Of a stretch of DNA of 64,000 nt, positions 30,901 through 47,722 are shown piece after piece. Origin of the DNA: an uncultured Desulfobacterales bacterium (GTDB taxonomy: Bacteria; Desulfobacterota; Desulfobacteria; Desulfobacterales; CAJINA01). How positions within the stretch are numbered: position 1 is the stretch's first letter; each line of letters opens with the position of its first letter. Both the position numbers and the translations under genes were made by a program. Location: positions 99,373 through 163,372 of the forward strand of contig CAZYGG010000001.1 of the NCBI GenBank assembly GCA_964647585.1, in the 5' to 3' direction. The notes under the pieces were generated by a model. It searched no databases, was not told the DNA's origin, and saw nothing but the letters and a program-made list of their open reading frames with translations.

Positions 30901-30994
30901 TATCTGACTAAAAGCCTTGATTTAGTTCAGAAGATGCTTTAAATATATTTTTTTGTTTGGACTGTCAAGCCAATATTTAAGAAGTTGGGAATAT

Positions 30995-31933
30995 ATGCAG
31001 ATTATTAACGACTTGAACGCGATCGCAAAACCTTTTAAAAATGCCGTGGTGACCACCGGCAACTTTGACGGGGTGCATATCGGGCACCAGGCCCTTTTTC
31101 ACGAGGTCATCGAACAGGCCGATGCCATCAAAGGGACCTCGGTGGCGATCACCTTTGATCCGCACCCCATCCGGGTCCTGAAACAAAACGGCCATCCGCC
31201 GCTGATCACCCTGCTGAACCAGAAAACCGAACTCATTGAAAGCACCGGTGTGGATGTGCTGATTGTCATCCCCTTTTCCACTGAATTCGCTGCCCTCTCC
31301 GCCCGTGAATTCGTCGCAGACATACTGGTTCGGAAAATCGGAATGCAAACCATAGTGGTTGGTTCCGACTACTCCTTCGGCCGCAACCGCGAGGGCAACC
31401 TGGACCTGCTCAAGGAAATGGCCCGGGAAATCGGTTTTAAGGTTATTTTAACGGATTGGATCCAGGGCCCCAATGCCAACACTCGCCGCATCAGCAGCAC
31501 ACGGGTTCGCGAACTGGTCATGGCCGGTGACATGGACCGCACCCGGAAACATCTGGGCCGATACTACCAGATCCGGGGCAAAGTCGCCACCGGTCGCAAT
31601 CGGGGGGGGCGGCTGCTGGGCTTTCCCACCGCCAACATCAATCTCCACGACGAACTCAGTCCCAAATCCGGGGTATATGCGGTCATGGTTGAGTGCGAGG
31701 GAAAACAATTCAAAGGCGTTGCCAACATCGGCTATAGCCCTACATTCGATGACCACATCTTTACCGTTGAAGTTCACATACTCGATTTTGAAAAAGACAT
31801 CTACGGAGAGGATATCCGGGTAAACTTCATCCAGCGCTTGCGGGCTGAAGAAAAGTTCTCGGGGATCGACGCGCTTTCCGAACAGATCAACAAAGATATC
31901 CTGCACGCCCGAAAAATATTGAATAATATTTGA
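30995..31933 (+). CDS. ribF: Bifunctional riboflavin kinase / FMN adenylyltransferase
   Basis: VVTTGNFDGVHIGHQ and the C-terminal kinase PTANI...GVY motifs. ATG 30995 (MQIIND) is preferred over the TTG at 30953. Confidence 0.85.
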   Translation: MQIINDLNAIAKPFKNAVVTTGNFDGVHIGHQALFHEVIEQADAIKGTSVAITFDPHPIRVLKQNGHPPLITLLNQKTELIESTGVDVLIVIPFSTEFAALSAREFVADILVRKIGMQTIVVGSDYSFGRNREGNLDLLKEMAREIGFKVILTDWIQGPNANTRRISSTRVRELVMAGDMDRTRKHLGRYYQIRGKVATGRNRGGRLLGFPTANINLHDELSPKSGVYAVMVECEGKQFKGVANIGYSPTFDDHIFTVEVHILDFEKDIYGEDIRVNFIQRLRAEEKFSGIDALSEQINKDILHARKILNNI

Positions 31934-32081: not shown

Positions 32082-33176
32082 TTGAATATGAATAGAAAAA
32101 CAACTGCATCCCTGGTGCTGAGCGTGGTGATATCCGCCCTGGCGCTCTACCTGGCCTTTCGCAACGTGCCCATTGGCGAACTGGTGACTTACCTGGCTTC
32201 CATCCATACCCTCTGGATGGTACCAGCGGTTCTGGTGGTATTGATCAGTTTCGCCCTGCGCGCCCTGCGCTGGAAGATCATCCTCGCCTCCACGCAGAAA
32301 ATAGCCTTCTGGCCCACCTATCACCCCATGATGATCGGTTTTATGATCAACTGTATCCTGCCCGGCCGGATCGGTGAAATTGCCCGCCCGGTCATATTGA
32401 AAAAAAAGGAAGGGGTTCCTTTTACCGCGGGGCTGGCAACGGTGGCCACCGAAAGGGTATTTGACGCAGGGCTCTTAATCGCCTTTTTTGCCGTTGTGCT
32501 GGCATTTGTCGACATCGATCCGCAGGTCAGCATCCCCTTTGGCCAGTATACCCTCAACCGCGAAACCCTCATGGCAATCGGTACCGGCCTGTTTCGTTTA
32601 TGCCTGGTGGGCATCGCCGGCATTATCGTCATCTCCGTTGACGCAAGCCGCAACCTGCTGATTCGTTTTATCGAACATTTTCCAACGTTCCTGGTTTTTC
32701 TGAAACAGAAACACCGCGACCTGATCGCGGATAAACTCTGCCGATTTATCGTTAGAATTATCAATAACTTTGCGGATGGTTTTTCCATGGTCAAGTCGCC
32801 TTTCAAACTGGCGGCCTGCACCGGGCTTTCCCTGATTATCTGGATTCTGGGTGCTGTTTCTTACTACCTCATGGCCCTGGGCTGCCCGGGACTATACATT
32901 TCCTTTATTGAACTGTCGGCAGTCATGATTATTGTATGTTTTTTCATTGCCCTTCCCTCTGTGCCCGGTTTCTGGGGCATCTGGGAAGCCGGCGGTGTGT
33001 TTGCCATGGCGCTTTTCGGTGTACCGGCCAGGGAAGCGGCCGGGTTTACCCTGGCGAACCATGCGGTCCAGATGTTTCCCATCATTATCGCCGGTCTCTA
33101 TTCGGCTGTTCTCACGGGGGTAAAGATCAGGCAGTTTGCCGGCACAAAGACGGAGATAACCAATGACGCTACTTGA
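32082..33176 (+). CDS. Lysylphosphatidylglycerol-synthase-TM-region-like (UPF0104, flippase-like) membrane protein
   Basis: About 8 TM segments. The conserved LRALRWKIIL and ILPGRIGEIARP motifs are typical of that family. Confidence 0.7.
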   Translation: MNMNRKTTASLVLSVVISALALYLAFRNVPIGELVTYLASIHTLWMVPAVLVVLISFALRALRWKIILASTQKIAFWPTYHPMMIGFMINCILPGRIGEIARPVILKKKEGVPFTAGLATVATERVFDAGLLIAFFAVVLAFVDIDPQVSIPFGQYTLNRETLMAIGTGLFRLCLVGIAGIIVISVDASRNLLIRFIEHFPTFLVFLKQKHRDLIADKLCRFIVRIINNFADGFSMVKSPFKLAACTGLSLIIWILGAVSYYLMALGCPGLYISFIELSAVMIIVCFFIALPSVPGFWGIWEAGGVFAMALFGVPAREAAGFTLANHAVQMFPIIIAGLYSAVLTGVKIRQFAGTKTEITNDAT

Positions 33177-33675
33177 TATCCTCACCTATCCCGACAAGCG
33201 GCTGCGCAACAAAGCGGCACCGGTTGAAATCGTCGATGACGACATTCAAAACATCATTGCCGACATGGCTGAGACCATGTACGCCGCGCCCGGTATGGGC
33301 CTGGCTGCCACTCAGGTAGGCATAGATAAAAGAATAATTATTTTCGATGTTTCCGGACCGGAAGATCAACCTGCACTTGAAGTTTTATTGAACCCGTTTA
33401 TCGTGGAATCCGAAGGGACCCAGCTCTCGGAAGGCGAAGGCTGCCTCAGCGTGCCGGATTTCAGAAGTGACGTCAAAAGATTCGAACGGGTCAAGGTGGA
33501 TGCCCTTGACAGAAACGGCCAACCGGTTCACATAGAAACAGACGGACTCTACGCGATTGTCCTGCAGCATGAAATCGACCATCTGGACGGGGTTCTTTTC
33601 ATTGACAAAATCAGCGCGCTGAAACGGGAGATGTATAAGCGTAAGGTGAAAAAACAGATGAAGAATAAAGGATAA
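33163..33675 (+). CDS. def: Peptide deformylase
   Basis: GMGLAATQVG, EGCLSVP and QHEIDHLDG motifs. Confidence 0.92.
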   Translation: MTLLDILTYPDKRLRNKAAPVEIVDDDIQNIIADMAETMYAAPGMGLAATQVGIDKRIIIFDVSGPEDQPALEVLLNPFIVESEGTQLSEGEGCLSVPDFRSDVKRFERVKVDALDRNGQPVHIETDGLYAIVLQHEIDHLDGVLFIDKISALKREMYKRKVKKQMKNKG

Positions 33676-33923: not shown

Positions 33924-34865
33924 ATGAATACCCCCCTTAAAGTCATCTTCATGGGAACACCGGACTTTGCCGTTCCCACCCTGCAGGCCCTGCACCGGGC
34001 CGGACATGCGATTCCCATGGTGGTCACCCAGCCGGACCGCCCCAAAGGTCGGGGCCGTAAGACCACACCGACACCGGTGAAAGCAGCCGCCCTCAACCTG
34101 GAACTGACCGTTGAACAGCCGATCACCGTTCGTTCGGCAGACTTCGTCACAAAGCTGAAAAGACTGGAACCGGATCTTTTCGTGGTTGTGGCCATGGGGC
34201 AGATATTAAGCCAGGAACTCCTGGACATTCCCCGGATGGGCGCCATCAACGTACACGCGTCCCTGCTGCCGAAATATCGCGGGGCTGCCCCGATCCAGTG
34301 GGCCCTGATCAACGGCGAACAGGAGACCGGGATTACCACGATGCTCATGGACGCCGGCCTTGACACTGGGAACATGCTCCTGTCCGCACGCACGGACATC
34401 ACATCTGAGGACACGGCCCAAACGCTGCATGACCGGTTGCGCACCCTGGGGGCCGACCTGCTTATTGAAACCCTTAACGGTATGATTTCAAATACAATTA
34501 CACCTGTTCAGCAGGATCACGAGCGGGCTTCCCAGGCACCGCTGTTAAAAAAGGGAGATGGGCGCATCGATTGGCAAAAACCGGCTGTGGCCATTGACAC
34601 TTTTATCCGGGGTATGACCCCCTGGCCCGGCGCTTTCAGCTTTATGGGCGATAAACGCCTCAAGATCTTCGCCGCCAGACCGGTGCCCCTGACATCACCC
34701 GCCCCTCCGGGCACCGTTATACGGGGATTTGCCGATGAACTGCGGGTGGCCACCGGCAACCAGGCCCTGACCATCCTTGAACTCCAGGCTGCCTCCGGCA
34801 AACGTCTGCCTGTCCGGGACTACCTGATCGGCAATCCCGTGGCAGAAGGCACTGTACTAAGCTGA
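33924..34865 (+). CDS. fmt: Methionyl-tRNA formyltransferase
   Basis: VIFMGTPDFAVPTL, NVHASLLPKYRGAAPIQWA. Confidence 0.92.
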   Translation: MNTPLKVIFMGTPDFAVPTLQALHRAGHAIPMVVTQPDRPKGRGRKTTPTPVKAAALNLELTVEQPITVRSADFVTKLKRLEPDLFVVVAMGQILSQELLDIPRMGAINVHASLLPKYRGAAPIQWALINGEQETGITTMLMDAGLDTGNMLLSARTDITSEDTAQTLHDRLRTLGADLLIETLNGMISNTITPVQQDHERASQAPLLKKGDGRIDWQKPAVAIDTFIRGMTPWPGAFSFMGDKRLKIFAARPVPLTSPAPPGTVIRGFADELRVATGNQALTILELQAASGKRLPVRDYLIGNPVAEGTVLS

Positions 34866-36226
34866 TGGCCTCTGACGTCAGAAAAGAGGCCCTGGCCATT
34901 CTTTCTGAGCTGGAAAAAGAGCGCCCTCTCACCCTTGACCGCATGCTGGATACCTATCGCACTGCCGACCCGGGTCAGCTCCGCCGTGACAAAGCCTTTC
35001 TGCAGGCCCTCGTCTTCGGCATACTGCGCACGCGCAATCGCCTCGATTGGACTATCCGCCATTTTTCTAAAACCCCTTTCCGAAAAATATCTCCCGATGT
35101 GAAAAACATCCTGCGCCTGGGGGTTTACCAGATTCTGTACATGGATCGGGTACCGGATTCTGCGGCGGTCAACACCGCGGTCGAACTGGCCAAAAAGGTG
35201 GCCGCACCCTGGACGGTTAAATTTGTAAATGGCCTCCTGCGCAACATTGCCCGCCACCCGGACGCCGTGACGTTCCCGGATATGGCCAAAAACGTAGTCC
35301 ACGCGCTCTCCGTACGCAAATCCCTGCCGGAGTGGCTCGTGCAGCGGTGGCTGACCAGATTCGGCCAGGACCAGTGTGTACAATTGTGCGACGCGGTGAA
35401 CACGATCCCGCCGCTCAGCCTGCGCACGAACACCCTGAAAACCTCCCGCACGTCGCTGGTGAACACCCTTGACAATGTTGTGGACGCAACCGTCCGGACT
35501 TCCCACACCCCGGAGGGAATTTTACTGTATGGTCTGCATACCGACCTGCAAGCTCTCCCGGGATATGCAGAGGGAAAATTCCAGGTCCAGGACGAGGCCG
35601 CCCAGTTGGTCGCCCACATCCTGGCACCCCGTCCCGGCCTGCGGGTCCTGGATGCCTGTGCCGGTCTGGGCGGCAAAACAGGCCATATCGCCCAACTCCT
35701 TGATAATAAGGGTGAAATTTTTGCCCTGGAGTCGGTTGAGAGTAAACTTGCGGCCCTGGAAAAGGAGATGCGCCGGCTGGGCATTTCCATTGTCACGCCC
35801 GCCCGGCATGATCTGACAAAACCACCGGATCCCGCGGTGTTCGGCACCTTTGACCGGATCCTCCTGGACGCGCCCTGCTCCGGGTTGGGGGTCTTGCGCC
35901 GCAACCCGGATACAAGATGGCACCGCACTACGGCCGACCTTGCGCGTTATGCCGGACGGCAGCAGACGTTCCTGAATCACCTGGCCCCCCTTGTGAAACC
36001 GGGCGGTATTCTGGTATATGCAGTCTGCAGTATGGAACCAGAGGAGAATGAAGCGGTCATACAATCGTTTCTCGCCCGGAATCGATTGTTTGAACCGATC
36101 GCGGTTCCAACGGACTCTATCAGTGACCCGACATCGGTGGTGGCATCTGACAATTGTTTACGGACCCTGCCGCACCGACACAACATGGACGGCTTTTTCG
36201 CGGTGTGCCTCAGGCGTCGGAAGTAA
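34865..36226 (+). CDS. rsmB: 16S rRNA (cytosine967-C5)-methyltransferase
   Basis: NusB-like N-terminus, DACAGLGGKT, DAPCSGLGVLRRNPD, YAVCS. TGATG overlap with the fmt stop. Confidence 0.9.
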   Translation: MASDVRKEALAILSELEKERPLTLDRMLDTYRTADPGQLRRDKAFLQALVFGILRTRNRLDWTIRHFSKTPFRKISPDVKNILRLGVYQILYMDRVPDSAAVNTAVELAKKVAAPWTVKFVNGLLRNIARHPDAVTFPDMAKNVVHALSVRKSLPEWLVQRWLTRFGQDQCVQLCDAVNTIPPLSLRTNTLKTSRTSLVNTLDNVVDATVRTSHTPEGILLYGLHTDLQALPGYAEGKFQVQDEAAQLVAHILAPRPGLRVLDACAGLGGKTGHIAQLLDNKGEIFALESVESKLAALEKEMRRLGISIVTPARHDLTKPPDPAVFGTFDRILLDAPCSGLGVLRRNPDTRWHRTTADLARYAGRQQTFLNHLAPLVKPGGILVYAVCSMEPEENEAVIQSFLARNRLFEPIAVPTDSISDPTSVVASDNCLRTLPHRHNMDGFFAVCLRRRK

Positions 36227-36311
36227 AGATCCTGGCATAGAGGGCCAGGCTTTGGGTTGCCCCTGGAAGGGGCTTGGTTCTTACACCAGCAAGTTGAAAG
36301 TGCCAAAAAAA

Positions 36312-36491
36312 ACGAACATCCAACATTCAACATCGAACGTCCAACATCGAAAAAGGACTGAAGCTTTGCTTCGCTGATTTATAGACCCTACAGGGCTTTA
36401 TAACCACTTGAGACGATTCGTGTTTAACTGGTCGCCGAAGGCGTACCTCAATTCAATGTTCAATGTTGAGTGTTCGATGATGAATGTTCAG
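36312..36491. repeat. Word-repeat hairpin element, family B-like (CATCCAACAT/CATCGAAC words)
   Basis: ACGAACATCCAACATTCAACATCGAACGTCCAACATCGAA faces AATTCAATGTTCAATGTTGAGTGTTCGATGATGAATGTTCAG. Confidence 0.8.
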
Positions 36492-36578
36492 CTTTTTAAA
36501 ACTTTTACCTGCTTATCGGAACAGCCTAATATCTCTGACCTGCCCGTAAAAACCGGGGTTTTTGTGCATCAATACATT

Positions 36579-37574
36579 ATGATTTATAAGATACTGAAAA
36601 TATTGTTTCTTGTATCAATATTCATCGTCGGCGCCGGCGCCAGCGCCTACCTGACACTCACCCTGATCATCAAGGGTGAAGAGACCGTTGTGGTACCTGC
36701 GCTGCAAGAAAAAGAGGTGGTCTACGCCCTTCAGATCCTCAGTGACCTGGGCTTGAACACCCGGATAAAAGCCTCCCGGTACAGTGCCACCGTCCCTGCC
36801 AATCACATCATCGCGCAAGAGCCTGGTCCCGGCGCGGAAATAAAAAAGGGCCGGAATATCAAGCTGGTGATCTCAAAGGGCCAGCTGTCCGTACCCACCC
36901 CGCAAGTGACCGGCCTGTCGCTCAGCCAGGCCCTGATCATCCTTGAGGAAAGCGGGATTTGTCCGGGAACCCGTTCCCATTCAACCCATGTCGATCTGCC
37001 GGCAGGCGCCATCATTGCCCAGTCACCGCCACCCGGCGTGGTCATCAATCGGCAAAACTGCGTGGACCTGTTGATAAGTTCCGGGCCTTACCAGGAAGCG
37101 TTCGCCATGAACGACCTGACCACCCTGCCAGTGGACGACGCCATCCTTAAAATTGAATCCGGGAATCTGAAACTGGGCAATATATCCACGTCTGCAACCC
37201 GGGACGTTCCCCTGAACACGGTCGTTGGCCAGACACCGCCGGCTGGATACCGGGTCGTCCCCGGCCAGGCAGTGCACCTGGATGTCAACCGGGCCCGTCC
37301 AACCAGCGGTCAGTCCGCAGAAGCCGCCCGGCGCAAGGTCTGGTTCTATCGCTACCGAACCGGTACGGGTTTTCTTAACACGCATATAAAAGTCCGGATT
37401 AACAGCAAATTGTTTTCATATACGCTTTTTGATGATTTCATGCCGCCGGATACAGATCTAATTTTTTTAATACCGCGCTTTGAAAATATCACCGTTATGC
37501 TATATGAAGACGGAGCGTTGATAAAAACAATCTTTCCCGGCAGCCACCTGACGGACATTCAAGCATTCAGGTAG
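36579..37574 (+). CDS. Membrane-anchored protein with three PASTA domains (no kinase or PBP domain)
   Basis: MIYKILKILFLVSIFIVGAGASAYLTL TM, then three ~65-aa PASTA-like repeats ending in KLVISKG, DLLISSG and HLDVNR. The 36408 start would translate the repeat arm. Confidence 0.75.
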   Translation: MIYKILKILFLVSIFIVGAGASAYLTLTLIIKGEETVVVPALQEKEVVYALQILSDLGLNTRIKASRYSATVPANHIIAQEPGPGAEIKKGRNIKLVISKGQLSVPTPQVTGLSLSQALIILEESGICPGTRSHSTHVDLPAGAIIAQSPPPGVVINRQNCVDLLISSGPYQEAFAMNDLTTLPVDDAILKIESGNLKLGNISTSATRDVPLNTVVGQTPPAGYRVVPGQAVHLDVNRARPTSGQSAEAARRKVWFYRYRTGTGFLNTHIKVRINSKLFSYTLFDDFMPPDTDLIFLIPRFENITVMLYEDGALIKTIFPGSHLTDIQAFR

Positions 37575-37577
37575 ATA

Positions 37578-37658
37578 GACTGTAGGCATTTAGGCTATAG
37601 GGAAAAACATACCGCCGTTGACTGTGAAACCTAATAGTCTTCAGCCTACAGCCTAAAC
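37578..37658. repeat. Word-repeat hairpin element, family E (CTGTAGGC/TTTAGGC words)
   Basis: GACTGTAGGCATTTAGGCTATAGGG faces CCTAATAGTCTTCAGCCTACAGCCTAAAC. Confidence 0.75.
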
Positions 37659-37684
37659 AACCTGAATATTACAGGAGAAGGTTT

Positions 37685-38341
37685 ATGAAAAAAATTGCCC
37701 CCTCTATTCTTTCAGCTGACTTTGCAAAACTGGGCGACGAAATCCGTGCGGTGGCCGCCGCCGGGGCAGACTGGATTCATGTGGATGTGATGGATGGGCA
37801 CTTTGTGCCCAACATTACCATCGGTCCGCTGGTAGTTGAGGGCATCCGGCCGGTAACAGACCTGCCCCTGGATGTGCACCTGATGATTGAAAACGCGGAT
37901 CGCTATATCCCGGATTTTGCAGCTGCCGGGGCAGACATTATTGCCGTGCAGACCGAGGCCTGTGTCCACTTGCACCGCACCCTGCAGCTCATCCGGCAGC
38001 ACGACTGCAAAGCGGGGGTGGTTTTGAACCCTTCCACACCGATCGATGGCCTGGAGTGGATCCTGCCGGATATCGACCTGGTGGTATTGATGAGCGTCAA
38101 CCCCGGTTTCGGCGGCCAGAAATTCATTCCGGCAACCCTCGAAAAAATCAGCCGGCTGCGTAAAATGATCGATGACCGGGGACTGGCCATCGACATCGAG
38201 GTGGACGGCGGCGTGAACAGTAAAACCATTGCATCCGTAGCCGGTGCCGGGGCCAATGTTTTCGTGGCCGGCTCGGCCATCTTCGGTAGTGAAGATTACG
38301 CAGCTACTATTGCCGAATTCAGGCGTCTGATGGGAGAATAG
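37685..38341 (+). CDS. rpe: Ribulose-phosphate 3-epimerase
   Basis: [41 protein letters not shown]. Confidence 0.92.
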
Positions 38342-38544: not shown

Positions 38545-38982
38545 ATGCAAAAAATACTCGTGATCCACGGACCAAATCTGAATATGCTGGGGACCAGGGA
38601 ACCGGAAGTCTACGGCAGTGAGGGGCTTGACCAGATAAACGCCCGGCTGGAAAAAAAGGCTGCCTCTCTGAATGTTGAACTGGATGTTTTCCAGTCCAAC
38701 CACGAAGGCCAGATTGTGGAAAAAATACAGGCTGCTCCCGGGGAGTGCGCCGCGGTAATTATCAATCCGGCCGCCTTTACCCACACCAGTGTGGCCATCC
38801 GCGACGCCCTGCTGCTGCTCGAGGTGCCAATTATCGAAATCCACCTCTCCAACATCTACAAGCGTGAACCCTTCCGCCATAAATCGCTTGTCACCGACAT
38901 TGCCACCGGACAGATCTGCGGCCTGGGCACCCAGGGATATATTCTGGCTCTGGAGGCGGCGGCCAATCTATTGAAAAGCTGA
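38545..38982 (+). CDS. aroQ: Type II 3-dehydroquinate dehydratase
   Basis: ILVIHGPNLNMLGTREPEVYG, NPAAFTHTSVAIRDA, IEIHLSNI. Confidence 0.92.
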   Translation: MQKILVIHGPNLNMLGTREPEVYGSEGLDQINARLEKKAASLNVELDVFQSNHEGQIVEKIQAAPGECAAVIINPAAFTHTSVAIRDALLLLEVPIIEIHLSNIYKREPFRHKSLVTDIATGQICGLGTQGYILALEAAANLLKS

Positions 38983-39222
38983 ATATCCAACAAGGAATGT
39001 CCAAATGAAACCAGGATCCAAGGGGTCAAGGGGCCGAGGGTTCTAGTGAGCCCCTGCGGGGCTGAAACCTAAGACCACTGGATGCCGGATCAAAGTCCGG
39101 CATGACGGTCTCTTTATTCCAAATAACAGAATAACTCACTTGGATTGGGATTGATTTTCCCTCGAACCCTCGAACCCTTGACCCCTTGAACCCTTGCTTT
39201 GTTGGATATTGGATATTCGATC
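38983..39222. repeat. Composite nested element: family B outer arms, family A inner arms and a conserved GTCATGCCGGA hairpin in the core
   Basis: Outer arms at 38983-39007 and 39197-39222. Inner arms at 39014-39043 and 39159-39193. Core hairpin CTGGATGCCGGATCAAAGTCCGGCATGAC at 39078-39106. Confidence 0.8.
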
Positions 39223-39224
39223 TT

Positions 39225-40571
39225 CTAAAAGAACAAACTCACCCGGCCATACACACTGTCCACCGGCACATGCCAGATGCCGTACTGCGGCACGTAAAAT
39301 CCTCCGTATTCAGTCCCCTCCCCACCATAATGAGTGGTACCGCTGAGGACGACCTGGACGTTCTGCGCCGCGCTCCATTCCATCCGGGGCTGAACCGTGC
39401 CCGATGGGTCGGCCAGGTTATTGATAACTGCCAGGGAGAGGATCACCAGGGGATGAATCTCGTATTGCAGCTGACCTGCCAGATAGTTCCGCCCCAGGGT
39501 AAACAGCTCCCCCCGGGCCAGCCTGTCCAGCATATCCGGGTCTGAAAAAGCCGCTGCATAGTCACTTTTGCCGAGGCCGTTGTGGTAATATTCCAACAGG
39601 CCGTAAACATTTTTACCACCCCACGTCCAGGCGTAATCAAGGTTGGTCACGCATGTCAGAAAATCACTGTCAGCCTCCCGGTCGTCCAAACGGGTCCAGG
39701 TAAGGTCAAATCGCCAAACCGCCCCACCCACGGTCCGAGTGGCGCCAAAACCGGCCACCGTATCAGCGTAGTGCTGCCCGGCCATCAGGTCGATCTCGAA
39801 TAAATTAAAAGCGTGGTGCAGTTTCCCCGCCAAGGAAGCGTATTCACCGCTGACCGCATCGGTTTGCGGATCCCGGCGGGGTACGTAAACCATTTGAATA
39901 TCATCTATTTTCATACCCTGAACCTGCAGTAGAGCCATGTCCGCACCTATTTTATAATCCCGTTCCATATCGGTGGGACGAAACGGATTAAACAGGTCCA
40001 TCGGGTTGAAGACGAGGCCGTTGCCCCAGGTGAGCGCCTGCCGGCCAACCGCCGCCGTGCCCCAGGCCGGCTGGGCGGCGAGGACCAGCCGGTCAAGCCG
40101 GTGATAGGCAATATAATCATCCCCTTCGTCGATGACGCCGGAAAGATTGAAGAAGCTGGTTTGGTCGGAAATGAAGGCCGGGGCAATCAATGCATTGCCC
40201 GCACTGCTGCCTCCGGCTGCTTTAAGAGCGTTATTCTTTTCCAGGGTATCGCCGCCCCGTAAAACCGCTTCGTAGTGCCATTCAAATGAATAGATCTCTC
40301 CGGCCCAGGTCTTGTTTTTCAGCCTGAAATCCGTTTCCCCGTCCAGGTAAGTGCCGGCACCCACCGAACCGTAAATAGACCGGTCATCGACGGACGCAGC
40401 CATCCCGCCCGCGCGCAGGTGGCCGCCCCATTCGGTTGAAATCGTATCTTTTAATTTTTCAGAAGCTTGCGCCACACCGGGAACAAAAGTAACAGATATA
40501 AACAGGCAAAGAAAGATGGCGGCAGACAGGGATGTGGTCGGCTTTTCCAGATTGTATGCGAGATTGGCCAT
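39225..40571 (-). CDS. Outer-membrane beta-barrel protein (family not recognised)
   Basis: Signal peptide (LSAAIFLCLFISVTFVPGVAQA), alternating beta-strand pattern, and C-terminal YGRVSLFF beta-signal ending in Phe. Confidence 0.6.
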   Translation of the reverse strand: MANLAYNLEKPTTSLSAAIFLCLFISVTFVPGVAQASEKLKDTISTEWGGHLRAGGMAASVDDRSIYGSVGAGTYLDGETDFRLKNKTWAGEIYSFEWHYEAVLRGGDTLEKNNALKAAGGSSAGNALIAPAFISDQTSFFNLSGVIDEGDDYIAYHRLDRLVLAAQPAWGTAAVGRQALTWGNGLVFNPMDLFNPFRPTDMERDYKIGADMALLQVQGMKIDDIQMVYVPRRDPQTDAVSGEYASLAGKLHHAFNLFEIDLMAGQHYADTVAGFGATRTVGGAVWRFDLTWTRLDDREADSDFLTCVTNLDYAWTWGGKNVYGLLEYYHNGLGKSDYAAAFSDPDMLDRLARGELFTLGRNYLAGQLQYEIHPLVILSLAVINNLADPSGTVQPRMEWSAAQNVQVVLSGTTHYGGEGTEYGGFYVPQYGIWHVPVDSVYGRVSLFF

Positions 40572-40734
40572 ATCAATTCAGTAAAATACCTTAACCCTGG
40601 CCCAGACCGATTACCCATACTGTTGGCGATAAAGCAAGGCGTGGAATAATTTGCCTGCTATCCCCGCAAATATTACATTCGCGCCAGGGCGGGCTTTAGA
40701 TCAATTCTAACTTTAGGTGACTGCAATCACAAAT

Positions 40735-41418
40735 CTATTTTTTCTCATCACCGGCCACACGCCCATCCCGTATATGGATCAAGCGACGGGCGTATTCCAT
40801 TACCATCTGGTCATGGGTTGAAAATACGAAGGTTACCCCTTTGCGGGTATTCATGGCCAGCATCAGCTCCAGGAGTCCCTGGCCGGTCTTGGAATCCAGG
40901 TTGGCCGTGGGTTCATCGGCCAGGACAATGGAGGGATTCGATACAATTGCCCGCGCCACGGCCACCCGTTGCTGCTGTCCGCCGGAAAGTTCCGCCGGCC
41001 GCCGGTCATATTTGTCTTCCAGACCAACGTCGTCCAGGATCGTCCTGGCCCGGTCACCCCTCTCTTTTGGAGAAACCCCCTGCAGCAGCATGACATATTC
41101 CACATTTTCCACCGCCGAAAGGACCGGGATCAGGTTGTAAGCCTGGAAAACAAACCCGATCTTGTGCAGGCGCAGGTGGGCCAGTTCTGACGCGCTCATA
41201 CGGCTGTAGTCATTCCCGTCAACGGATATGGTGCCGGTGTCCGCCCGATCCAGACTTCCGATGAGGTTCAAGACAGTTGTCTTGCCTGACCCGGAGGGGC
41301 CGGCCAGGGCCACGAACCCCCCCTTATCGATGGAAAGGCTGACTCCCCGCAGGGCCTTGACCGTCACCTCGCCCTGCTGGTAGGTTTTTACAAGGTTTTC
41401 GCAATTTACAATGGCCAT
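40735..41418 (-). CDS. ABC transporter ATP-binding protein (LolD/MacB-type)
   Basis: GPSGSGKTT, LSGGQQQRVAVARA, VLADEPT. Confidence 0.9.
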   Translation of the reverse strand: MAIVNCENLVKTYQQGEVTVKALRGVSLSIDKGGFVALAGPSGSGKTTVLNLIGSLDRADTGTISVDGNDYSRMSASELAHLRLHKIGFVFQAYNLIPVLSAVENVEYVMLLQGVSPKERGDRARTILDDVGLEDKYDRRPAELSGGQQQRVAVARAIVSNPSIVLADEPTANLDSKTGQGLLELMLAMNTRKGVTFVFSTHDQMVMEYARRLIHIRDGRVAGDEKK

Positions 41419-41451
41419 CCCAATAATCTCCGGTATGTATATACTCCAACA

Positions 41452-41546
41452 GTTTTAAGTTTTAGGTGTTAGGTGTTAGGTGTTAAGAAAAACATAAAAT
41501 ATCGTTAGAACAACCACTTAAAACTTAACACCCAACACTTAAAACA
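41452..41546. repeat. Word-repeat hairpin element, family F (GGTGTTA x3 / AGTTTTA words)
   Basis: GTTTTAAGTTTTAGGTGTTAGGTGTTAGGTGTTAAG faces CTTAAAACTTAACACCCAACACTTAAAACAC. Confidence 0.8.
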
Positions 41547-41548
41547 CT

Positions 41549-42775
41549 CTATACGTGCGTCATCGCCTCCACCGGTGTAAAGCGGGCGGCCCGGATAGCC
41601 GGATAGAGGCTGATCAGCATACCCAGCAGGAACACCATCAGGTTGGCGATCACCAGGTCCCTGAAGTTCAGGGCGGGATAGATGATTTTGGCGATCCCGG
41701 CATATTCGGCCCCCGCGGCAAACGCGGACAAGTCGATCCCCGTCCGGCTGAAGATCCACACGGTGACGAAAGCGACCCCGTTACCGATCAGTATCCCGCC
41801 CAGCAGCAGGAAAAATGATTCGGCCAGCACGTCCTTGACGATCCATCCCGGCTGCATACCCAGGGCCTTCAGGACACCGAACTCACGCATGCGTTCATAG
41901 ACGGCCATGAGCATGGTATTGACGATGCCGAATCCCATGGCGATAAACACCACAAGGTACCAGATCCAGCCCCAGCCCTGGATCAGCTCGACGTAGGTTT
42001 TGACCATGGGCAGGATCTCGGGCCAGCCCTCCACGCGAACGTCGCCGTCGATTTCGGCCTGGAGCTTGTCTCTTACCGCATCCAGGTTCGGGGGATCCTC
42101 TTCGGGCAGCACGATGGAATATTCCGATACCCCGGTACCGAGCTTGAGCATTCTGCGGGCGGCGGACTTGGTAACAAAGACAAACTGCTTTTCCGTAGCC
42201 TCCATTTCAGCCCGATAGAGGCCGATAATGCGAAAGGCCAGAGAACCGATCTCCCGCTGGGTGGTCTGGCTCATCAGGACCACCTTGCGTCCCAGTTTTG
42301 TGGCGAATTTGTCTGCCAGGGCCTTGCCGATCAGGATGCCATGGCGGTCGTCTGCCTTTAGATAGCGTCCTTCCCGCACCGCACCGGCAATAAACGAGAC
42401 AGCGGTTTCCCGGTCCGGATCGATGCCGATAACCGTCACACCAGCCGAATGGCGGGCATTGGCCGCCACGGCGGTCACCCGAATCCGGGAACTCCAGTTG
42501 GCGCCATCCGGCAGGTGTTTGGCAAGGACCTTGTCGACCCGGTCCGGATCGAAGATGCTGTTTTCAACCACCGGATCGTTTCGGTAGTCCCGCTGATGGA
42601 TCTGCAGATGACCGGTCAGGTTGGCAACCCCGTTTTTAATCATCTGGTTCACCATGCCCTGCCAGAGCGCACCCAGCACGACCATGCTCCAGACTCCGAT
42701 GGAAACCGCAATGAGAATAATGGTCGTCCTTCGCGGATTTCTCCAGATATTTCGCCAGGATAGTTGGAAGTGCAT
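41549..42775 (-). CDS. ABC transporter permease (FtsX/LolC-E/MacB type)
   Basis: 408 aa. N-terminal TM, a ~220-aa periplasmic domain, and a C-terminal 3-TM FtsX-like module. Confidence 0.85.
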   Translation of the reverse strand: MHFQLSWRNIWRNPRRTTIILIAVSIGVWSMVVLGALWQGMVNQMIKNGVANLTGHLQIHQRDYRNDPVVENSIFDPDRVDKVLAKHLPDGANWSSRIRVTAVAANARHSAGVTVIGIDPDRETAVSFIAGAVREGRYLKADDRHGILIGKALADKFATKLGRKVVLMSQTTQREIGSLAFRIIGLYRAEMEATEKQFVFVTKSAARRMLKLGTGVSEYSIVLPEEDPPNLDAVRDKLQAEIDGDVRVEGWPEILPMVKTYVELIQGWGWIWYLVVFIAMGFGIVNTMLMAVYERMREFGVLKALGMQPGWIVKDVLAESFFLLLGGILIGNGVAFVTVWIFSRTGIDLSAFAAGAEYAGIAKIIYPALNFRDLVIANLMVFLLGMLISLYPAIRAARFTPVEAMTHV

Positions 42776-42786
42776 GGGTAAAGCCT

Positions 42787-43013
42787 GTTTTAAGTTTTAT
42801 GTGTTAAGTGTTAAGAGAACAAAAATCCGAAATCCGAATATCGAATTCCTAAACAAATTATAAATCCAAATGCCTCAATGACCTAAACAAACCCCTTACC
42901 GACAAACCAAAATAACAGATTGTTTGTCCCTTTTGAATTTCTGCCATTCGATATTGTTTGCGGCGTTTGCCTTGAGAACATTCCGAATTTCAAAATTCGG
43001 GCTTCGGATTTTC
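42787..43013. repeat. Compound repeat: family F half-arm plus family G arms
   Basis: GTTTTAAGTTTTATGTGTTAAGTGTTAAG comes first. Then AAAATCCGAAATCCGAATATCGAATTCC faces CATTCCGAATTTCAAAATTCGGGCTTCGGATTTTCC. Confidence 0.75.
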
Positions 43014-43083
43014 CTTACGTCTAAACTCTATCGTAGCAACGGTACCAATAAAGAAATCAATAGTGGATCATCCGCAGTCACCC

Positions 43084-44316
43084 TCAGGTATACGTCAGCG
43101 CATCCACCGGTTTTAATTTTTTGATTTTCAGGGCCGGGTAAAGGGCCGCGCACACGGTGATCATAAACACCAGCGCCGGTCCCGTTACAATCGAAAACCA
43201 GGTCAGCCGCGGATACAGAGCGCCGGATATCCCGTATTGCTTCAGCATTTCCGAACTGCCGGCCAGGACAATCCCGTGGACCTGGAAATACCAGGTCAGG
43301 ATAATGCCCAGCCCGATGCCGGTGAAAATCCCCACCAGGGTCATCAGCATCGACTCCAGCATGACCATTTTCACCAGTTTGCCGGGTGTCGTGCCCAGGG
43401 CCATCATCACCCCGAACTCCCGGGTCCTCTCCAGGATGGCCATGAGAAAGGTGTTCAGGATGCTGAAAGCCACAACGAGAATCAGAATCACGTAAATGAT
43501 CAGGCCGCTCACCAGGTCCATGGCGATTCCCTGGGCCAGGCCGGGGAGCAGATCCATCCAGTCCAGGACCACCAGGTCGTCCGCCAGGTTTTCGTCCGCA
43601 ATCTCCTTCTCGAGCGCCTGCTTGACACCGTGGACATCGGCCAGGGACTGAACGGTGACCACGATCTCATGGACATTACCTTCCAGGGTAAAGACATCCT
43701 GGAAATAACCCAGCGGCACGTGGATCGCACTCCGGTCAAAATCGTCCATGCCGGAACTGTAGACCCCTTTTACCGTAAAAACGGCCGCTGCCACGGATCC
43801 GTCGCTTCCCTGCCCCAGGACAGTGAGTTCGTCGCCGATATCCACCTGCAGGTTCTTCGCCAGCAGCTGTCCGATGAGGGCCACGTCGGTGTCCGCCGCT
43901 TCCAGGTAGCGCCCTTTCCGGATCAGCTTGCGCAGGGTGGAGGTCGCCGCCTCTCGCCGCGGGTCAATTCCGATAACCAGGGCTCCGTAGGTTCTTTCCG
44001 CCGACGACACAAGTGAGAAGGCGTTGCCCCGTTCCGTTCGGGCGGTCACGGCGGGCAGTTCCCGGATGGCCGCCAGCATCTTTTCAGGGTGGTGCACCAT
44101 CTGCCGGATCTGTCGTTTTTCGTGATACCCTTTGGCCTGGATCTGCAGGTGCCCGGTGTGGATTCCCACGGAGGCATTGATCATCGTGTCGTAAGTGCCG
44201 ATCTGGAAGCTCAGCATGAACACCAGCAGGATGCAGGCGAAAGCAATCGCGGCGATGGTCAGCAGCGTGCGCCTTCTGTTGCGCCAGATGTTGCGCCAGC
44301 CCATTTTGAGGTTCAT
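43084..44316 (-). CDS. ABC transporter permease (FtsX/LolC-E/MacB type), paralogue of 41549-42775
   Basis: 410 aa with the same architecture. N-terminus MNLKMGWRNIWRNRRRT compares with MHFQLSWRNIWRNPRRT. Confidence 0.85.
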   Translation of the reverse strand: MNLKMGWRNIWRNRRRTLLTIAAIAFACILLVFMLSFQIGTYDTMINASVGIHTGHLQIQAKGYHEKRQIRQMVHHPEKMLAAIRELPAVTARTERGNAFSLVSSAERTYGALVIGIDPRREAATSTLRKLIRKGRYLEAADTDVALIGQLLAKNLQVDIGDELTVLGQGSDGSVAAAVFTVKGVYSSGMDDFDRSAIHVPLGYFQDVFTLEGNVHEIVVTVQSLADVHGVKQALEKEIADENLADDLVVLDWMDLLPGLAQGIAMDLVSGLIIYVILILVVAFSILNTFLMAILERTREFGVMMALGTTPGKLVKMVMLESMLMTLVGIFTGIGLGIILTWYFQVHGIVLAGSSEMLKQYGISGALYPRLTWFSIVTGPALVFMITVCAALYPALKIKKLKPVDALTYT

Positions 44317-44377
44317 GGTCGCTTCCTTTTATCTCTTCACCCTGCTCTTAAACTTAGCCCGATTCTTGGTTTTTACC

Positions 44378-44533
44378 GTCCTGCCGGACCCCGATCCGGC
44401 ATCCAGCCTTATTGAGATTGCTATCGGGATCCGTATTCGATTTCTATCCTGACTCTATGACTGGGGAAAGGCCCGGCACACTATTACTACAGTAAAACAA
44501 GCCCCTGGATCCCGGCCTACGCCGGGATGACAA
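44378..44533. repeat. Inverted pair of GTCnTGCCGGA...TCCGGCATCCAG-type hairpin units
   Basis: GTCCTGCCGGACCCCGATCCGGCATCCAGCC (44378-44408) faces CCCCTGGATCCCGGCCTACGCCGGGATGACAA (44502-44533). Confidence 0.7.
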
Positions 44534-44544
44534 CCTCTACCTCC

Positions 44545-45312
44545 CTACCTTCCCGGGTTCTTCAAGGCCGCCAGGGTAAACCGACGATCTTTCAGGACAA
44601 CGTCAAACGAAAGGGATACATATTCAACCAGCGTATACTCCTCCGGGCTTTCCGCCTTGTACATCTTCATCACCCGCGGCAGCAGCCGGTTCCCCAGCAT
44701 TTCCACCTGGCTGAATTCCAGGATCTTCACCGGTGCGAGGTCCTCGTCGTAGAAAATTTCTTCTACGGGAACCAGGTCCTCCCGGATCTTAAACGTCAGC
44801 ATCCCCCAGATGACCGCCGCCTCCGGTTTGGGTATGGATTTGATCAGGTAAACGGTCTGTCCCGCCTGGATCTCCTTGCCGGTGAGCGTGTGGTCATAGT
44901 CATCGATCACACTGTCGGATTTGGCCAGGTCGTTATTGGAAAAGTCGGACCCCATCCAGGCCCGGGCCATCATGGAGGGCGGCAGCTGGATCACCCGGTT
45001 GACCTTGGGGTTGAACGTCCACATGTTTTTGTCGAGTTTCAAGGTGCCGTTGCCCTTGTCCTTGGGGGGCGCCATGAGGGTAAAAAGGCTGTCCTTCTCC
45101 CCCCGGGTCCAGACTTTGATCCGGCTCACCCGCTGCCATTCCGGCCGGTGCACGGTCATCTCCACAGTCGACACAGATGTTTTTCCGCGCATATAGTTGA
45201 GATTGCCACGAATCAGTTGACTGGCTGTCGGTTCTCCGGCCATTGAGTGACCGGTTGGCAACAGTCCTATGGTCAACAGTGCGATGCTAAAAAAGAACCG
45301 ATAAGATCTCAT
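44545..45312 (-). CDS. LolA-like outer-membrane lipoprotein-sorting-protein-family periplasmic protein
   Basis: Signal peptide (FFFSIALLTIGLLPTGHSMA). The family pattern RGKTSVSTVEMTVHRPEWQR...LFTLMAPPKDKGNGTLKLDKNMW fits. GGAG RBS before ATG 45312. Confidence 0.65.
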   Translation of the reverse strand: MRSYRFFFSIALLTIGLLPTGHSMAGEPTASQLIRGNLNYMRGKTSVSTVEMTVHRPEWQRVSRIKVWTRGEKDSLFTLMAPPKDKGNGTLKLDKNMWTFNPKVNRVIQLPPSMMARAWMGSDFSNNDLAKSDSVIDDYDHTLTGKEIQAGQTVYLIKSIPKPEAAVIWGMLTFKIREDLVPVEEIFYDEDLAPVKILEFSQVEMLGNRLLPRVMKMYKAESPEEYTLVEYVSLSFDVVLKDRRFTLAALKNPGR

Positions 45313-45461
45313 GTCTCGTCTCCTTTGAATGCAGCCGGACTCTGTCAACGGGTGTATGAGGCATTTAACACTATAACCTGATTATTCGTCAAGTGACCGG
45401 GCAATGCATTTGTTTATCATTATGAAGTTGACTTATTCATTTTTCTATGTAAATTGAAGTT

Positions 45462-46622
45462 ATGTATCGCAGACTGATTAAAAAACCAATTGCTCAAAAC
45501 AGGAGTTTCTTCCTGTTCGGGCCAAGGGGTACGGGTAAGACTACCTGGATTAAAAGTGTCTTCCCAGAGGCTCTCTATCTAGATCTGCTGGAATTTGACC
45601 TGTATAATGATTTACTGGCACGTCCGGGACGGTTGGAAAGTTTAATTCCCCCCGGTTTTCACGACTGGATTATTCTCGACGAGATCCAACGCATACCGGA
45701 TTTACTCAATGAAGTCCATCGCTTAATAGAAAACCTGAATCTCAAATTTGTTTTGACAGGTTCCAGTGCCAGGACACTCCGGAAAAAGGGAGTCAACCTG
45801 CTCGCCGGGCGTGCTTTGACGTACCGAATGTATCCTCTCACCGCCATTGAGCTGGGTAACGATTTCAAGTTGGAAAATTCGTTAAAATGGGGCCATCTGC
45901 CATCAATTTCTTCCGAAAATGAACCAGGTTTGTATTTAAAAGCGTACGTGCAAACCTATCTGCGTGAAGAAGTCCTCCAGGAGGGTTTGACAAGGAACCT
46001 GGGCAGTTTTTCACGTTTTCTCGAAACAGCTTCATTCTCCCAGGGAGCCGTACTGAACATTTCTGAAATAGCCAGAGAAGCCGGTATTGAAAGAATGCGG
46101 ATTACCAGTTATTTTTCGATACTTGAGGACTTGCTTCTCGCGTCCAGGCTGCCGGTCTTTACAAAAAGGGCAAAGCGTAGAGTAACCGTGCATCCCAAAT
46201 TTTACTATTTTGATGTGGGTGTTTTCCGATCGCTGCGCCCCATGGGACCTCTGGATTCTCCGGCAGAAGCCGAAGGTCCCGGTCTTGAAACTCTATGCTA
46301 TCAAGAACTATCGGCCATCAACGACTATTACAAATATGGATACAACCTTTATTACTGGCGAACCGGTAACGGTGTTGAGGTCGATTTCATACTTTATGGC
46401 TCCAGAGGTCTGCTCGCTTTTGAAATTAAACGATCCAACCGTTTTTCAACTAAAGACTTAAGAGGTTTAAAACTGTTTTCAAGTGATTACCCGGAGGCAA
46501 AATTATATTTTCTATATGGCGGCTCAAGGGAACAATACGAAAACAATGTTACCATAATACCGATTGAAAAGGCTCTAAAAATGCTGCCGGAAATTCTGGA
46601 AAATAACGCTTCCGCCCCCTGA
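45462..46622 (+). CDS. AAA+ ATPase (AAA_14 / DUF4143-type)
   Basis: FLFGPRGTGKTT Walker A and WIILDEIQ Walker B. The C-terminal EVDFIL...FEIK pattern is typical of DUF4143. Confidence 0.75.
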   Translation: MYRRLIKKPIAQNRSFFLFGPRGTGKTTWIKSVFPEALYLDLLEFDLYNDLLARPGRLESLIPPGFHDWIILDEIQRIPDLLNEVHRLIENLNLKFVLTGSSARTLRKKGVNLLAGRALTYRMYPLTAIELGNDFKLENSLKWGHLPSISSENEPGLYLKAYVQTYLREEVLQEGLTRNLGSFSRFLETASFSQGAVLNISEIAREAGIERMRITSYFSILEDLLLASRLPVFTKRAKRRVTVHPKFYYFDVGVFRSLRPMGPLDSPAEAEGPGLETLCYQELSAINDYYKYGYNLYYWRTGNGVEVDFILYGSRGLLAFEIKRSNRFSTKDLRGLKLFSSDYPEAKLYFLYGGSREQYENNVTIIPIEKALKMLPEILENNASAP

Positions 46623-46774
46623 TTTAATAAAAGGAAAACAAAATTATACCGGCTCCCATTCAAACCTGGAACATTGCCTCCAGACAAAAACTTATCATCG
46701 CGGGCCCCTGCAGCGCCGAATCGGCAGCACAGGTTCTGAACACCGCCCGGGAACTGGCCCGCTGTAAAATCGAT

Positions 46775-47722
46775 GTGCTGCGCGCCGGTATCTGGAAACC
46801 GCGGACCATGCCAGGCACATTCGAAGGGGTCGGTGAAACCGGTCTGGCCTGGCTGGCACAGGCCAAAAAGGAGACCGCCCTGCCGGTCACCGTGGAGGTG
46901 GCGACCCCCTCACATGTTGAAGCGTGCCTGCGCCATGGAATCGACTTGCTCTGGATCGGTGCCCGCACGACCGTAAATCCCTTTTCAGTACAGGCCATAG
47001 CGGATGCCCTGCGGGGGGTGGACATTCCGGTTATGGTGAAGAACCCCATCAATCCGGACCTCGATCTGTGGCTTGGCGCGGTTGAACGCCTGTCCCGGGC
47101 CGGTATCAAAAAGATTGCGGCCATTCACCGGGGCTTCTCATCAGCCACGGAAACCCTCTATCGCAACCGGCCGCACTGGACGATTCCCATCGAAATGAAG
47201 CTCCGGCATCCGGAAATCCCCCTTATCTGTGATCCCAGTCACATCAGCGGAGACGGCGAGCTGGTCTTTGATGTGGCGCAAAAGGCTATGGATCTGCTTT
47301 TTGACGGCCTGATGATCGAAGCTCATATCGCCCCCGAATCCGCCCTGAGCGATGCCCGCCAGCAGCTCTCCCCGGCCCGGCTGGACCGGCTGCTGAAGAA
47401 AATAGAATTCAAGCGCGCCCATTCCGACAACATCGCTTTTGCCAGCACTCTTGAACAGCTTAGGGAAAAAATTGATGCGGCGGATGAAGCCGTCATCACG
47501 GCCCTGGCCAGACGGATGGAGATCGTCGATGAAATCGGGCGGTATAAGCAGAGCAACAATGTTTCAATTTTGCAACCGGAGCGCTGGAATGAAATCCTGG
47601 TGAGCCGCATCGCGGCCGGGGTGCGGCGCAACCTGTCCGAACGGTTTATGCGGGAGCTGTATCGCTGCATCCATGCGGAATCCATTGAGCACCAGGAAGC
47701 GCAGATTAAAAAAGGAGATTGA
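46775..47722 (+). CDS. 3-deoxy-7-phosphoheptulonate (DAHP) synthase type I-beta fused to chorismate mutase. The N-terminus lies in another frame (see finding).
   Basis: LRAGIWKPRT, WIGARTTVNPF, VKNPINPDLDLW, DPSH, and a C-terminal CM_2-like LREKIDAADEAVITALARRMEIVDEIGRYK. The conserved IIAGPCSAES strand is encoded upstream at 46695-46724 in a different frame. Confidence 0.8.
   Translation: MLRAGIWKPRTMPGTFEGVGETGLAWLAQAKKETALPVTVEVATPSHVEACLRHGIDLLWIGARTTVNPFSVQAIADALRGVDIPVMVKNPINPDLDLWLGAVERLSRAGIKKIAAIHRGFSSATETLYRNRPHWTIPIEMKLRHPEIPLICDPSHISGDGELVFDVAQKAMDLLFDGLMIEAHIAPESALSDARQQLSPARLDRLLKKIEFKRAHSDNIAFASTLEQLREKIDAADEAVITALARRMEIVDEIGRYKQSNNVSILQPERWNEILVSRIAAGVRRNLSERFMRELYRCIHAESIEHQEAQIKKGD

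Follow-up and report, generated by a model that had tools for sequence, protein, structure and literature searches.

What is a protein built of PASTA repeats for when no kinase is attached to it? The question is raised by a 64,000-nucleotide (nt) stretch of DNA from an uncultured Desulfobacterales bacterium (assembly GCA_964647585.1, contig CAZYGG010000001.1, positions 99,373 to 163,372), which was analysed as a whole and is referred to below as the window. Between rsmB and rpe, the window carries a gene, here called the PASTA gene, at 36579–37574 (+ strand, stop codon included), whose product, the PASTA protein, is 331 amino acids (aa) long. In Gram-positive bacteria, PASTA kinases are central to the growth of the cell wall, to division, to the exit from dormancy and to tolerance of beta-lactams, and it is debated what their ectodomains bind and which of their effects need the kinase. 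Here, we show that the PASTA gene encodes a conserved, selected, periplasmic and non-enzymatic PASTA/Ig protein, which is co-translated with rsmB in its family. As to its nature, we see about an even chance that it is a non-catalytic envelope protein corresponding to a PrkC-ectodomain-like module without the kinase.

Gene boundaries and domain architecture

The longest open frame for this gene in the list of open reading frames (ORFs) runs from TTG 36408 to 37574. That start was dropped, as the extra N-terminal stretch falls inside a lineage-specific insert. In the alignment, the match to the three closest relatives opens exactly at ATG 36579; therefore, this start and the coordinates 36579–37574 are right. 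Homologues of 323–331 aa span 96–100% of the product. A first-pass annotation, made from the sequence letters, had proposed the same ORF and start codon, and both the onset of homology and the homologue lengths bear it out.

The same annotation had described the product as a transmembrane (TM) helix, three PASTA repeats and a beta-rich C-terminal domain, and had allowed for the case that no PASTA profile would match. The Pfam search it had proposed found PF03793 (PASTA) in three stretches of the protein (E 2e-34; 117.8 bits versus a gathering score of 23.2), and no other domain. The best NCBIfam model, NF033483 (PknB_PASTA_kin), reached 110 bits against a cutoff of 450, with only model positions 336–562 (TM helix and PASTA) aligned to residues 8–236. 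An AlphaFold2 model built from 20 family members, with a mean predicted local distance difference test (pLDDT) score of 83.5, comprises a helix (residues 2–32), three alpha+beta units (36–99, 104–167 and 174–237), a disordered linker (242–252, pLDDT <50) and a six-strand beta domain (255–318). Each of the three units is made of a helix and three to four strands and has a pLDDT of about 90. Pfam and the model together agree with the proposed layout (Table 1).

Similarity to the ectodomains of PASTA kinases

PASTA domains occur both in kinases and in penicillin-binding proteins (PBPs), and the question is to which type these repeats belong. Against the PDB, the family profile matched 3py9 and 3m9g (S. 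aureus Stk1/PrkC) at E 7e-28 and M. tuberculosis PknB 2kui, over three repeats, at E 3e-21, while no PBP was found at E < 0.01; the spoVD_pbp model scored 13 bits on the PASTA protein, with a cutoff of 688. Therefore, the repeats are of the kinase type rather than the PBP type. Structural comparison of the full model with Foldseek placed 3PY9, the complete extracellular region of S. aureus PrkC, at the top (E 5e-19, 293 columns), with PknB and then PBP PASTA domains ranking below it. Single PASTA domains were matched as well (3ouv, template modelling score, hereafter TM score, 0.90; 5nod, 0.76). The first-pass description of the protein as the PrkC ectodomain without its kinase is thus supported at the level of architecture, by this top match, and at the level of the locus, by the position of the gene.

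The C-terminal domain was also modelled in isolation (pLDDT 83.6, predicted TM score 0.70). Among 350,000 PDB chains, its top match was again 3PY9 (TM score 0.60, root mean square deviation 3.9 Å, 75 columns), at a weak E of 0.033, and generic Ig-like sandwiches scored close behind. A profile of 24 C-terminal domains yielded only noise against PDB sequences (E about 1) and a single fragment among 5.8 billion proteins, a result probably limited by the word index of the search. Comparison by hhalign with the C-terminus of B. subtilis PrkC, for which an approximate query was used, gave a probability of 0.3%. The C-terminal domain of PrkC has been described as an incomplete Ig fold without one strand (PMC3601408), and the six predicted strands fit that description.

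With PrkC, Stk1 (PknB) and StkP of Firmicutes, the PASTA protein has in common one TM helix followed by three PASTA repeats of the kinase type and, to judge by a weak fold match, an Ig-like sandwich at the C-terminus, and the genes of these kinases likewise lie downstream of def-fmt-rsmB and upstream of rpe. In contrast to them, it has neither the Hanks kinase nor the cytoplasmic juxtamembrane region, with 7 residues left in the cytoplasm; its locus has no neighbouring PP2C phosphatase, rlmN or rsgA; and its host is a diderm, in which the module sits in the periplasm. The ectodomain of M. tuberculosis PknB (2KUI, 5E12) is also a linear PASTA array, but it has four repeats, an attached kinase and no Ig-like domain, and the pknB locus of this species is the fhaA-pstP-rodA-pbpA-pknA-pknB operon, unlike the rsmB-rpe locus. 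The class B PBPs (PBP2x, S. aureus PBP1 and SpoVD) share the PASTA fold (Foldseek E 4e-6 to 1e-3), whereas the PASTA protein lacks the transpeptidase (PF00905) and pedestal domains and shows negligible sequence similarity to them. Kinase-independent effects of a free PASTA ectodomain are reported for mycobacterial PknB when that ectodomain is overproduced (PMC4632501).

Absence of a kinase or phosphatase at the locus

Could a kinase nevertheless be encoded nearby? Pfam assignments in the window give the order ribF, LPG_synthase_TM, def, fmt, rsmB, PASTA gene, rpe and aroQ, and so the order def-fmt-rsmB-X-rpe reported in the first-pass annotation was read correctly. Its statement that there is no kinase and no phosphatase gene stands too: among the ORFs of 200 aa or more in the 64 kb, none matched Pkinase, PP2C or FHA, and the sole "kinase-like" match there is a weak one of the APH family (54545–55561), within a sugar-modification cluster. 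Searches by tblastn with the kinase domains of M. tuberculosis PknB and B. subtilis PrkC returned nothing at E <= 1e-5 from the window and 84 related loci; as the query sequences were approximate, this is taken as supporting evidence only. PP2C was also absent from the called genes of the relatives' loci L001–L004 and L085–L089.

A kinase hidden directly upstream was ruled out as well: rsmB ends at 36226, relatives carry an ATGA overlap at this junction, and the gap present there in one related locus, L007, encodes no kinase. The stretch 36227–36578, where a missed kinase had been considered, proved to be a repeat-bearing insert without a kinase ORF. Elsewhere, the window encodes a secretin, components of type II secretion systems and type IV pili, a BamB-like propeller and MacB/Lol-like permeases; therefore, the host is a diderm.

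Breadth of the family, synteny and selection

Another important question is whether the PASTA protein is peculiar to one genome or belongs to a maintained family. A word-indexed search of 5.8 billion proteins yielded 573 relatives, of which the best 120 are all 263–352 aa long with PASTA as their sole Pfam domain. Those named among these 120 belong to Desulfobacterales or Thermodesulfobacteriota metagenome-assembled genomes (MAGs) and are called "PASTA domain-containing protein", the generic name under which the family is already present in public annotation. Among 1.84 billion representatives clustered at 50% identity, an exhaustive phmmer search detected dozens of ~320-aa clusters matching end to end (1–317), down to 31% identity, and the architecture with its three PASTA repeats is kept in members as distant as this. 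Start, length and domain order are conserved in the family. When one genome from each GTDB species was scanned with family-specific peptide patterns, which bias the survey towards Desulfobacterales, 224 genomes proved to hold a relative; the 80 listed are all of the Desulfobacterales type, including Desulfosarcina, Desulfatibia and Desulfonema, and the closest among them is the Olavius algarvensis Delta 4 symbiont (68% identity). The ratio of nonsynonymous to synonymous substitution rates (dN/dS) is 0.19, 0.17 and 0.20 relative to relatives at 89, 80 and 67% identity, respectively, which indicates purifying selection on the PASTA gene.

Many ~320-aa members are labelled "(eukaryotic-like) serine/threonine-protein kinase" in IMG/JGI (P0010, P0032, P0036, P0046 and others). 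For PASTA-only proteins, this is a systematic misannotation, which arises through similarity to PASTA-kinase ectodomains.

Wherever the contig is long enough, the PASTA gene is preceded by rsmB and followed by rpe in the 84 fetched loci and in the window. Members at 33–35% identity retain rsmB-PASTA-rpe, and a member at 31% retains PASTA-rpe with another gene upstream. In 59 of 65 loci, rsmB and the PASTA gene share 4 nt (ATGA), which contain the stop of the former and the start of the latter, and this overlap implies translational coupling and a single operon. Among the conserved neighbours of the related loci there is no signalling protein. The conserved synteny that the first-pass annotation had asserted thus holds across Desulfobacterales-type genomes with enough flanking sequence, and the parallel it had drawn with the Bacillus neighbourhood is in agreement with the literature, where the Firmicute order def-fmt-rsmB-rlmN-stp-stk...rsgA-rpe is documented: def1-fmt-rsmB-rlmN-stp1-stk1 form one operon in S. 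aureus (PMC10788911), prpC-prkC-cpgA is adjoined by rpe and thiN in B. subtilis (PMC6449344), and in S. aureus, B. subtilis and Listeria alike, rpe belongs to the region of the pknB operon (PMC8537086). The best explanation for the position of the gene is that its locus and the Firmicute cluster def-fmt-rsmB-rlmN-prpC-prkC-rsgA-rpe have a common ancestor, be it through vertical descent or through transfer, and with either loss or gain of the kinase.

The first reading had also implied that a stand-alone PASTA protein in such a genome is something exotic. That the protein is kinase-less was upheld, whereas its binding of muropeptides and its signalling to a target were assumptions of that reading. 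The stand-alone architecture by itself is less exotic than was implied, since kinase-less PASTA proteins are not rare in metagenomes, and all nine proteins checked within the top 150 representative matches were kinase-less and multi-PASTA. TM-PASTA effector modules also occur in iSTAND conflict systems of Gram-negative bacteria (PMC7159879). Because of this abundance in metagenomes and of these modules, the bare kinase-less PASTA architecture is not new. Both groups resemble the PASTA protein in having PASTA without a kinase, often behind a TM segment. However, the metagenome proteins are giant (500–5200 aa, 7–24 repeats, Laminin_G/Big domains) and the iSTAND modules belong to NTPase conflict systems, whereas the Desulfobacterales protein is compact, of fixed architecture and encoded in a housekeeping operon.

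The giant kinase-less proteins form an observation in their own right. They (P0121–P0135 and others) measure 1000–5200 aa and have up to at least 24 PASTA repeats; some end in Big_7 and Laminin_G_3. As a group, they outscore ordinary PASTA kinases against the PASTA-protein query. Their biology appears to be undescribed.

Membrane topology and conserved residues

Of 186 family members, 160 have an uncharged span of exactly 24 residues, and 155 have exactly 7 residues ahead of it. The mean net charge is +2.0 ahead of the span and -1.1 behind it. This charge pattern, together with the single 24-residue span, points to an N-in, C-out orientation, and the N-terminus is probably a classical N-in signal anchor. 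As the helix is N-in/C-out and the host a diderm, all parts past the helix are placed in the periplasm. With only ~7 cytoplasmic residues, the PASTA protein may be no transmembrane signaller at all. A conserved motif at residues 21–24, x-S-A followed by Y (ASA at 21–23), is a possible signal-peptidase site; an uncleaved anchor is favoured because the hydrophobic length stays fixed beyond the putative cleavage site. Whether anchored or cleaved, the protein has all its functional parts in the periplasm and lacks an output domain in the cytoplasm.

The most conserved part of the protein is PASTA1 (conservation index 0.72), followed by the juxtamembrane segment (0.67), the TM helix (0.59), the C-terminal domain (0.58), PASTA2 (0.56), PASTA3 (0.53) and the linker (0.23). 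Within the helix, the outer half is strongly conserved (G20, S22, A23 and Y24 at 0.74–0.92), and G264, P290 and P299 are invariant in the C-terminal domain. In the PASTA kinases PknB, StkP and PrkC, the distal repeat is usually taken as the ligand or partner site; the constrained surface of the Desulfobacterales protein, in contrast, is membrane-proximal. Two cysteines of PASTA2, C128 and C161, co-vary: both are present in 124 members, neither in 50, C161 alone in 17 and C128 alone in none, in counts that ignore kinship among phylogenetically non-independent sequences. The pair fits a structural disulfide, as might be expected of an extracytoplasmic domain.

An insertion at the rsmB-PASTA junction

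In the window itself, a 356-nt insertion (36223–36578) sits precisely between the rsmB stop and the PASTA start. Alignment shows it to be missing from the related loci L088, L089 and L001 (relatives at 89, 80 and 67% identity). It gives rsmB a new TAA stop and breaks the ancestral 4-nt overlap. Within it are two terminator-like GC hairpins (36231–36249 and 36259–36273) and a pair of long inverted arms (36313–36351 and 36452–36488) made of CAACAT-like 7-mers, and the ~50 nt at its 5' end form a small dispersed repeat, copies of which occur at 23930–23967 (- strand), in L001 (5317–5368) and in L057 (10123–10160). The insertion looks like an element of the repetitive extragenic palindrome (REP) or miniature inverted-repeat transposable element (MITE) type that broke the ancestral translational coupling. 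An Rfam scan of 33.0–39.2 kb gave no match. As the fold of the 352-nt insert is only marginally more stable than those of shuffled sequences (z -2.3), the insert is not called a structured RNA. A search for a sigma-70-like promoter upstream of ATG 36579 was negative, and no Shine-Dalgarno sequence can be made out there. The PASTA reading frame is nonetheless intact at full length.

A second, independent disruption of the junction is present in a Desulfobacteraceae MAG, in which a 3.6-kb stretch with genes for two secreted repeat proteins, of 205 and 712 aa, separates rsmB from the PASTA gene (L007 904–4534). On the other side of the gene, the PASTA-rpe spacer (37575–37684) holds an imperfect hairpin (ctgtaggc ... 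gcctacag), and ~85 nt of this spacer are 83% conserved in the closest relative (L088 2987–3072). The hairpin may be a terminator or attenuator, or another small repeat.

Possible function and alternative explanations

How could such a protein act? Because the family is normally translated by coupling to rsmB, the protein is normally made constitutively alongside growth and translation genes. By analogy with PrkC, PknB and StkP, its repeats would bind peptidoglycan stem peptides and/or lipid II, as is reported for the repeats of PASTA kinases. A protein without any cytoplasmic domain would relay no signal inward and would act in the envelope itself. At the outer face of the inner membrane, it would scaffold, localise or regulate membrane-embedded proteins that synthesise the cell wall or carry out division. 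It would touch these partners with its conserved helix, its juxtamembrane segment and the face of PASTA1, and phosphorylation would play no part; this would be the function that a PASTA ectodomain has independently of a kinase. An outer-face, membrane-proximal role is suggested because conservation is highest in PASTA1, in the juxtamembrane segment and in the outward half of the helix. We judge the arguments for and against such a scaffolding, localising or regulatory role to be in balance.

Several points weigh against the proposed envelope role. Binding of the cell wall or lipid II is something that we infer from the analogy with the kinases, and some PASTA domains bind no muropeptides. The register of the repeats is not one-to-one, as PASTA2-3 of the family align best with PASTA1-2 of Stk1, and the likeness of the modelled C-terminal domain to the Ig-like domain of PrkC is structural only and weak. 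Cleavage after A23 could free a soluble protein, which would remove the membrane-proximal argument, and the housekeeping neighbours offer no functional clue. Finally, in the window's own genome the insert removes the coupling to rsmB, and expression there is uncertain, because this coupling is lost and neither promoter nor Shine-Dalgarno sequence is evident.

Other explanations have to be weighed against the same data. The PASTA protein might be one half of a split PASTA kinase, i.e., a sensor whose helix, by contacting that of a separately encoded partner in the membrane, switches on a Hanks kinase or a different transducer, for instance a histidine kinase. In favour of this, conservation of the TM helix equals that of the PASTA repeats, and the helix bears small-residue motifs (A19/G20, S22, A23 and Y24, at 0.74–0.92) of the kind that a helix packing specifically against another should have; separately encoded receptor/kinase pairs exist in Proteobacteria (bioRxiv 10.64898/2026.05.25.727664). 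However, a homodimer, or a membrane partner of any kind, would account for the same conservation equally well, no gene for a kinase, PP2C or FHA was found in the 64 kb or within ~6 kb of the 84 related loci, and the conserved neighbours include no signalling protein; we regard a split kinase as unlikely. A low probability is likewise assigned to a periplasmic structural protein, soluble or anchored, whose repeats no longer bind the cell wall. It would be a spacer or adhesin-like module that was inherited at this locus and works through its Ig-like domain, or it would have some other ligand in the periplasm. Of the three repeats, the distal PASTA3 is conserved least (0.53), whereas the well-conserved C-terminal domain (0.58) keeps its three invariant residues; the AxA-like motif would permit cleavage; and an adhesive role has been suggested for the incomplete Ig fold of PrkC (PMC3601408). 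Against this stand the retention of three PASTA repeats with strong Pfam scores in all members down to 31% identity and the fixed length of the 24-residue span, including its part past the putative cleavage site.

It could also be asked whether the gene is merely a decaying remnant of prkC, a pseudogene or neutral leftover after the loss of the kinase. The position of the locus is identical to that of prkC, and in the window's genome the coupling to rsmB is disrupted by the insertion and no ribosome-binding site is obvious. Nevertheless, the frame is intact at full length with dN/dS of 0.17–0.20, and the presence of relatives in 224 species genomes and many 50%-identity clusters, with conserved start, length and domain order, effectively refutes this explanation for the family as a whole; we consider it highly improbable.

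Neighbouring genes and other features of the window

The coordinates of the features are collected in Table 1. The LPG_synthase_TM gene (MprF-like, flippase-type) overlaps def by 14 nt, and most related loci have it at the corresponding place. Together with the PASTA gene, it makes two envelope genes among the translation genes of the ribF...rpe cluster, and its co-operonic product is a speculative candidate for a partner of the PASTA protein.

Downstream of the cluster, aroQ and the DAHP-synthase/chorismate-mutase gene are separated by ~7.7 kb (38983–46654) in the window, compared with ~350 nt in L001. This segment, whose genes are given in Table 1, is probably an inserted Lol/MacB-like transporter island. 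The DAHP_synth_1 + CM_2 gene (46631–47722) begins to resemble its L001 counterpart at 46655 (residue 10); its frame is open from 46631, with no ATG, GTG or TTG before GTG 46775. Its canonical start seems to have been lost at the edge of the inserted segment, and the gene may use a non-canonical ATT or ATA start after AAGGAA or may be truncated by ~50 residues.

Table 1 Features of the PASTA gene, its neighbours and the downstream segment in the window
Feature	Position	Strand	Basis
Cytoplasmic tail, aa 1–7 (MIYKILK), net charge ~+2	36579–36599	+	Family statistics
Single hydrophobic helix, aa 8–31, probable N-in signal anchor	36600–36671	+	AlphaFold2; NF033483 TM region from model position 336
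PASTA repeat 1, aa 37–100, membrane-proximal	36687–36878	+	Best Pfam stretch; conservation
PASTA repeat 2, aa 104–169, with cysteine pair C128/C161	36888–37085	+	AlphaFold2 secondary structure; cysteine counts
PASTA repeat 3, aa 174–238	37098–37292	+	Pfam stretches; AlphaFold2; profile alignment to 3py9 and 2kui repeats
Variable low-confidence linker, aa 239–254	37293–37340	+	pLDDT; conservation 0.23
C-terminal six-stranded Ig-like beta-sandwich, aa 255–320	37341–37538	+	Domain model; 3PY9 match
ribF	30953–31933		Pfam
LPG_synthase_TM (MprF-like, flippase-type) membrane protein	32082–33176	+	PF03706, 162 bits
def	33163–33675	+	Pfam
fmt	33924–34865	+	Pfam
rsmB, 16S rRNA m5C methyltransferase	34865–36226	+	NusB + RsmF-B_ferredox + Methyltr_RsmB-F
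rpe, ribulose-phosphate 3-epimerase	37685–38341	+	Ribul_P_3_epim, 293 bits
aroQ	38545–38982		Pfam
448-aa ORF, no Pfam match	39225–40571	-	
ABC ATPase	40735–41418	-	
MacB/FtsX-type permease	41549–42775	-	
MacB/FtsX-type permease	43084–44316	-	
ORF, no Pfam match	44527–45246		
AAA_14/DUF4143 ATPase	45462–46622		

Significance of the family

In the literature on PASTA proteins, including those of Deltaproteobacteria and Proteobacteria, we found no paper on this Desulfobacterales family, no compact protein of three PASTA repeats and an Ig-like domain that is fixed at the prkC position in a diderm order and coupled to rsmB, and nothing on the kinase-independent, selected ectodomain function that the family implies. 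An order of sulfate-reducing diderms that keeps the ectodomain alone, at the same locus, under purifying selection and coupled to rsmB represents a natural experiment, which shows that the PASTA/Ig module is valuable without phosphorylation. The family also dates the def-fmt-rsmB...PASTA...rpe arrangement before, or across, the monoderm/diderm split of the lineages, and corrects a widespread misannotation as serine/threonine kinases in IMG.

A further, doubtful suggestion is that the kinase-independent role of the PASTA ectodomain in envelope growth is ancient and original to the rsmB-rpe locus. The Desulfobacterales protein would then represent either the form of PrkC before its fusion to the kinase or an ectodomain kept after the kinase was lost, acting directly on the machinery of peptidoglycan synthesis or division in the inner membrane by way of its conserved helix, its juxtamembrane segment and the surface of PASTA1. 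If this is true, the family would provide a clean natural system in which PASTA sensing or scaffolding is separated from phosphorylation, and the cultured Desulfobacterales are tractable organisms in which the role of the family can be tested.

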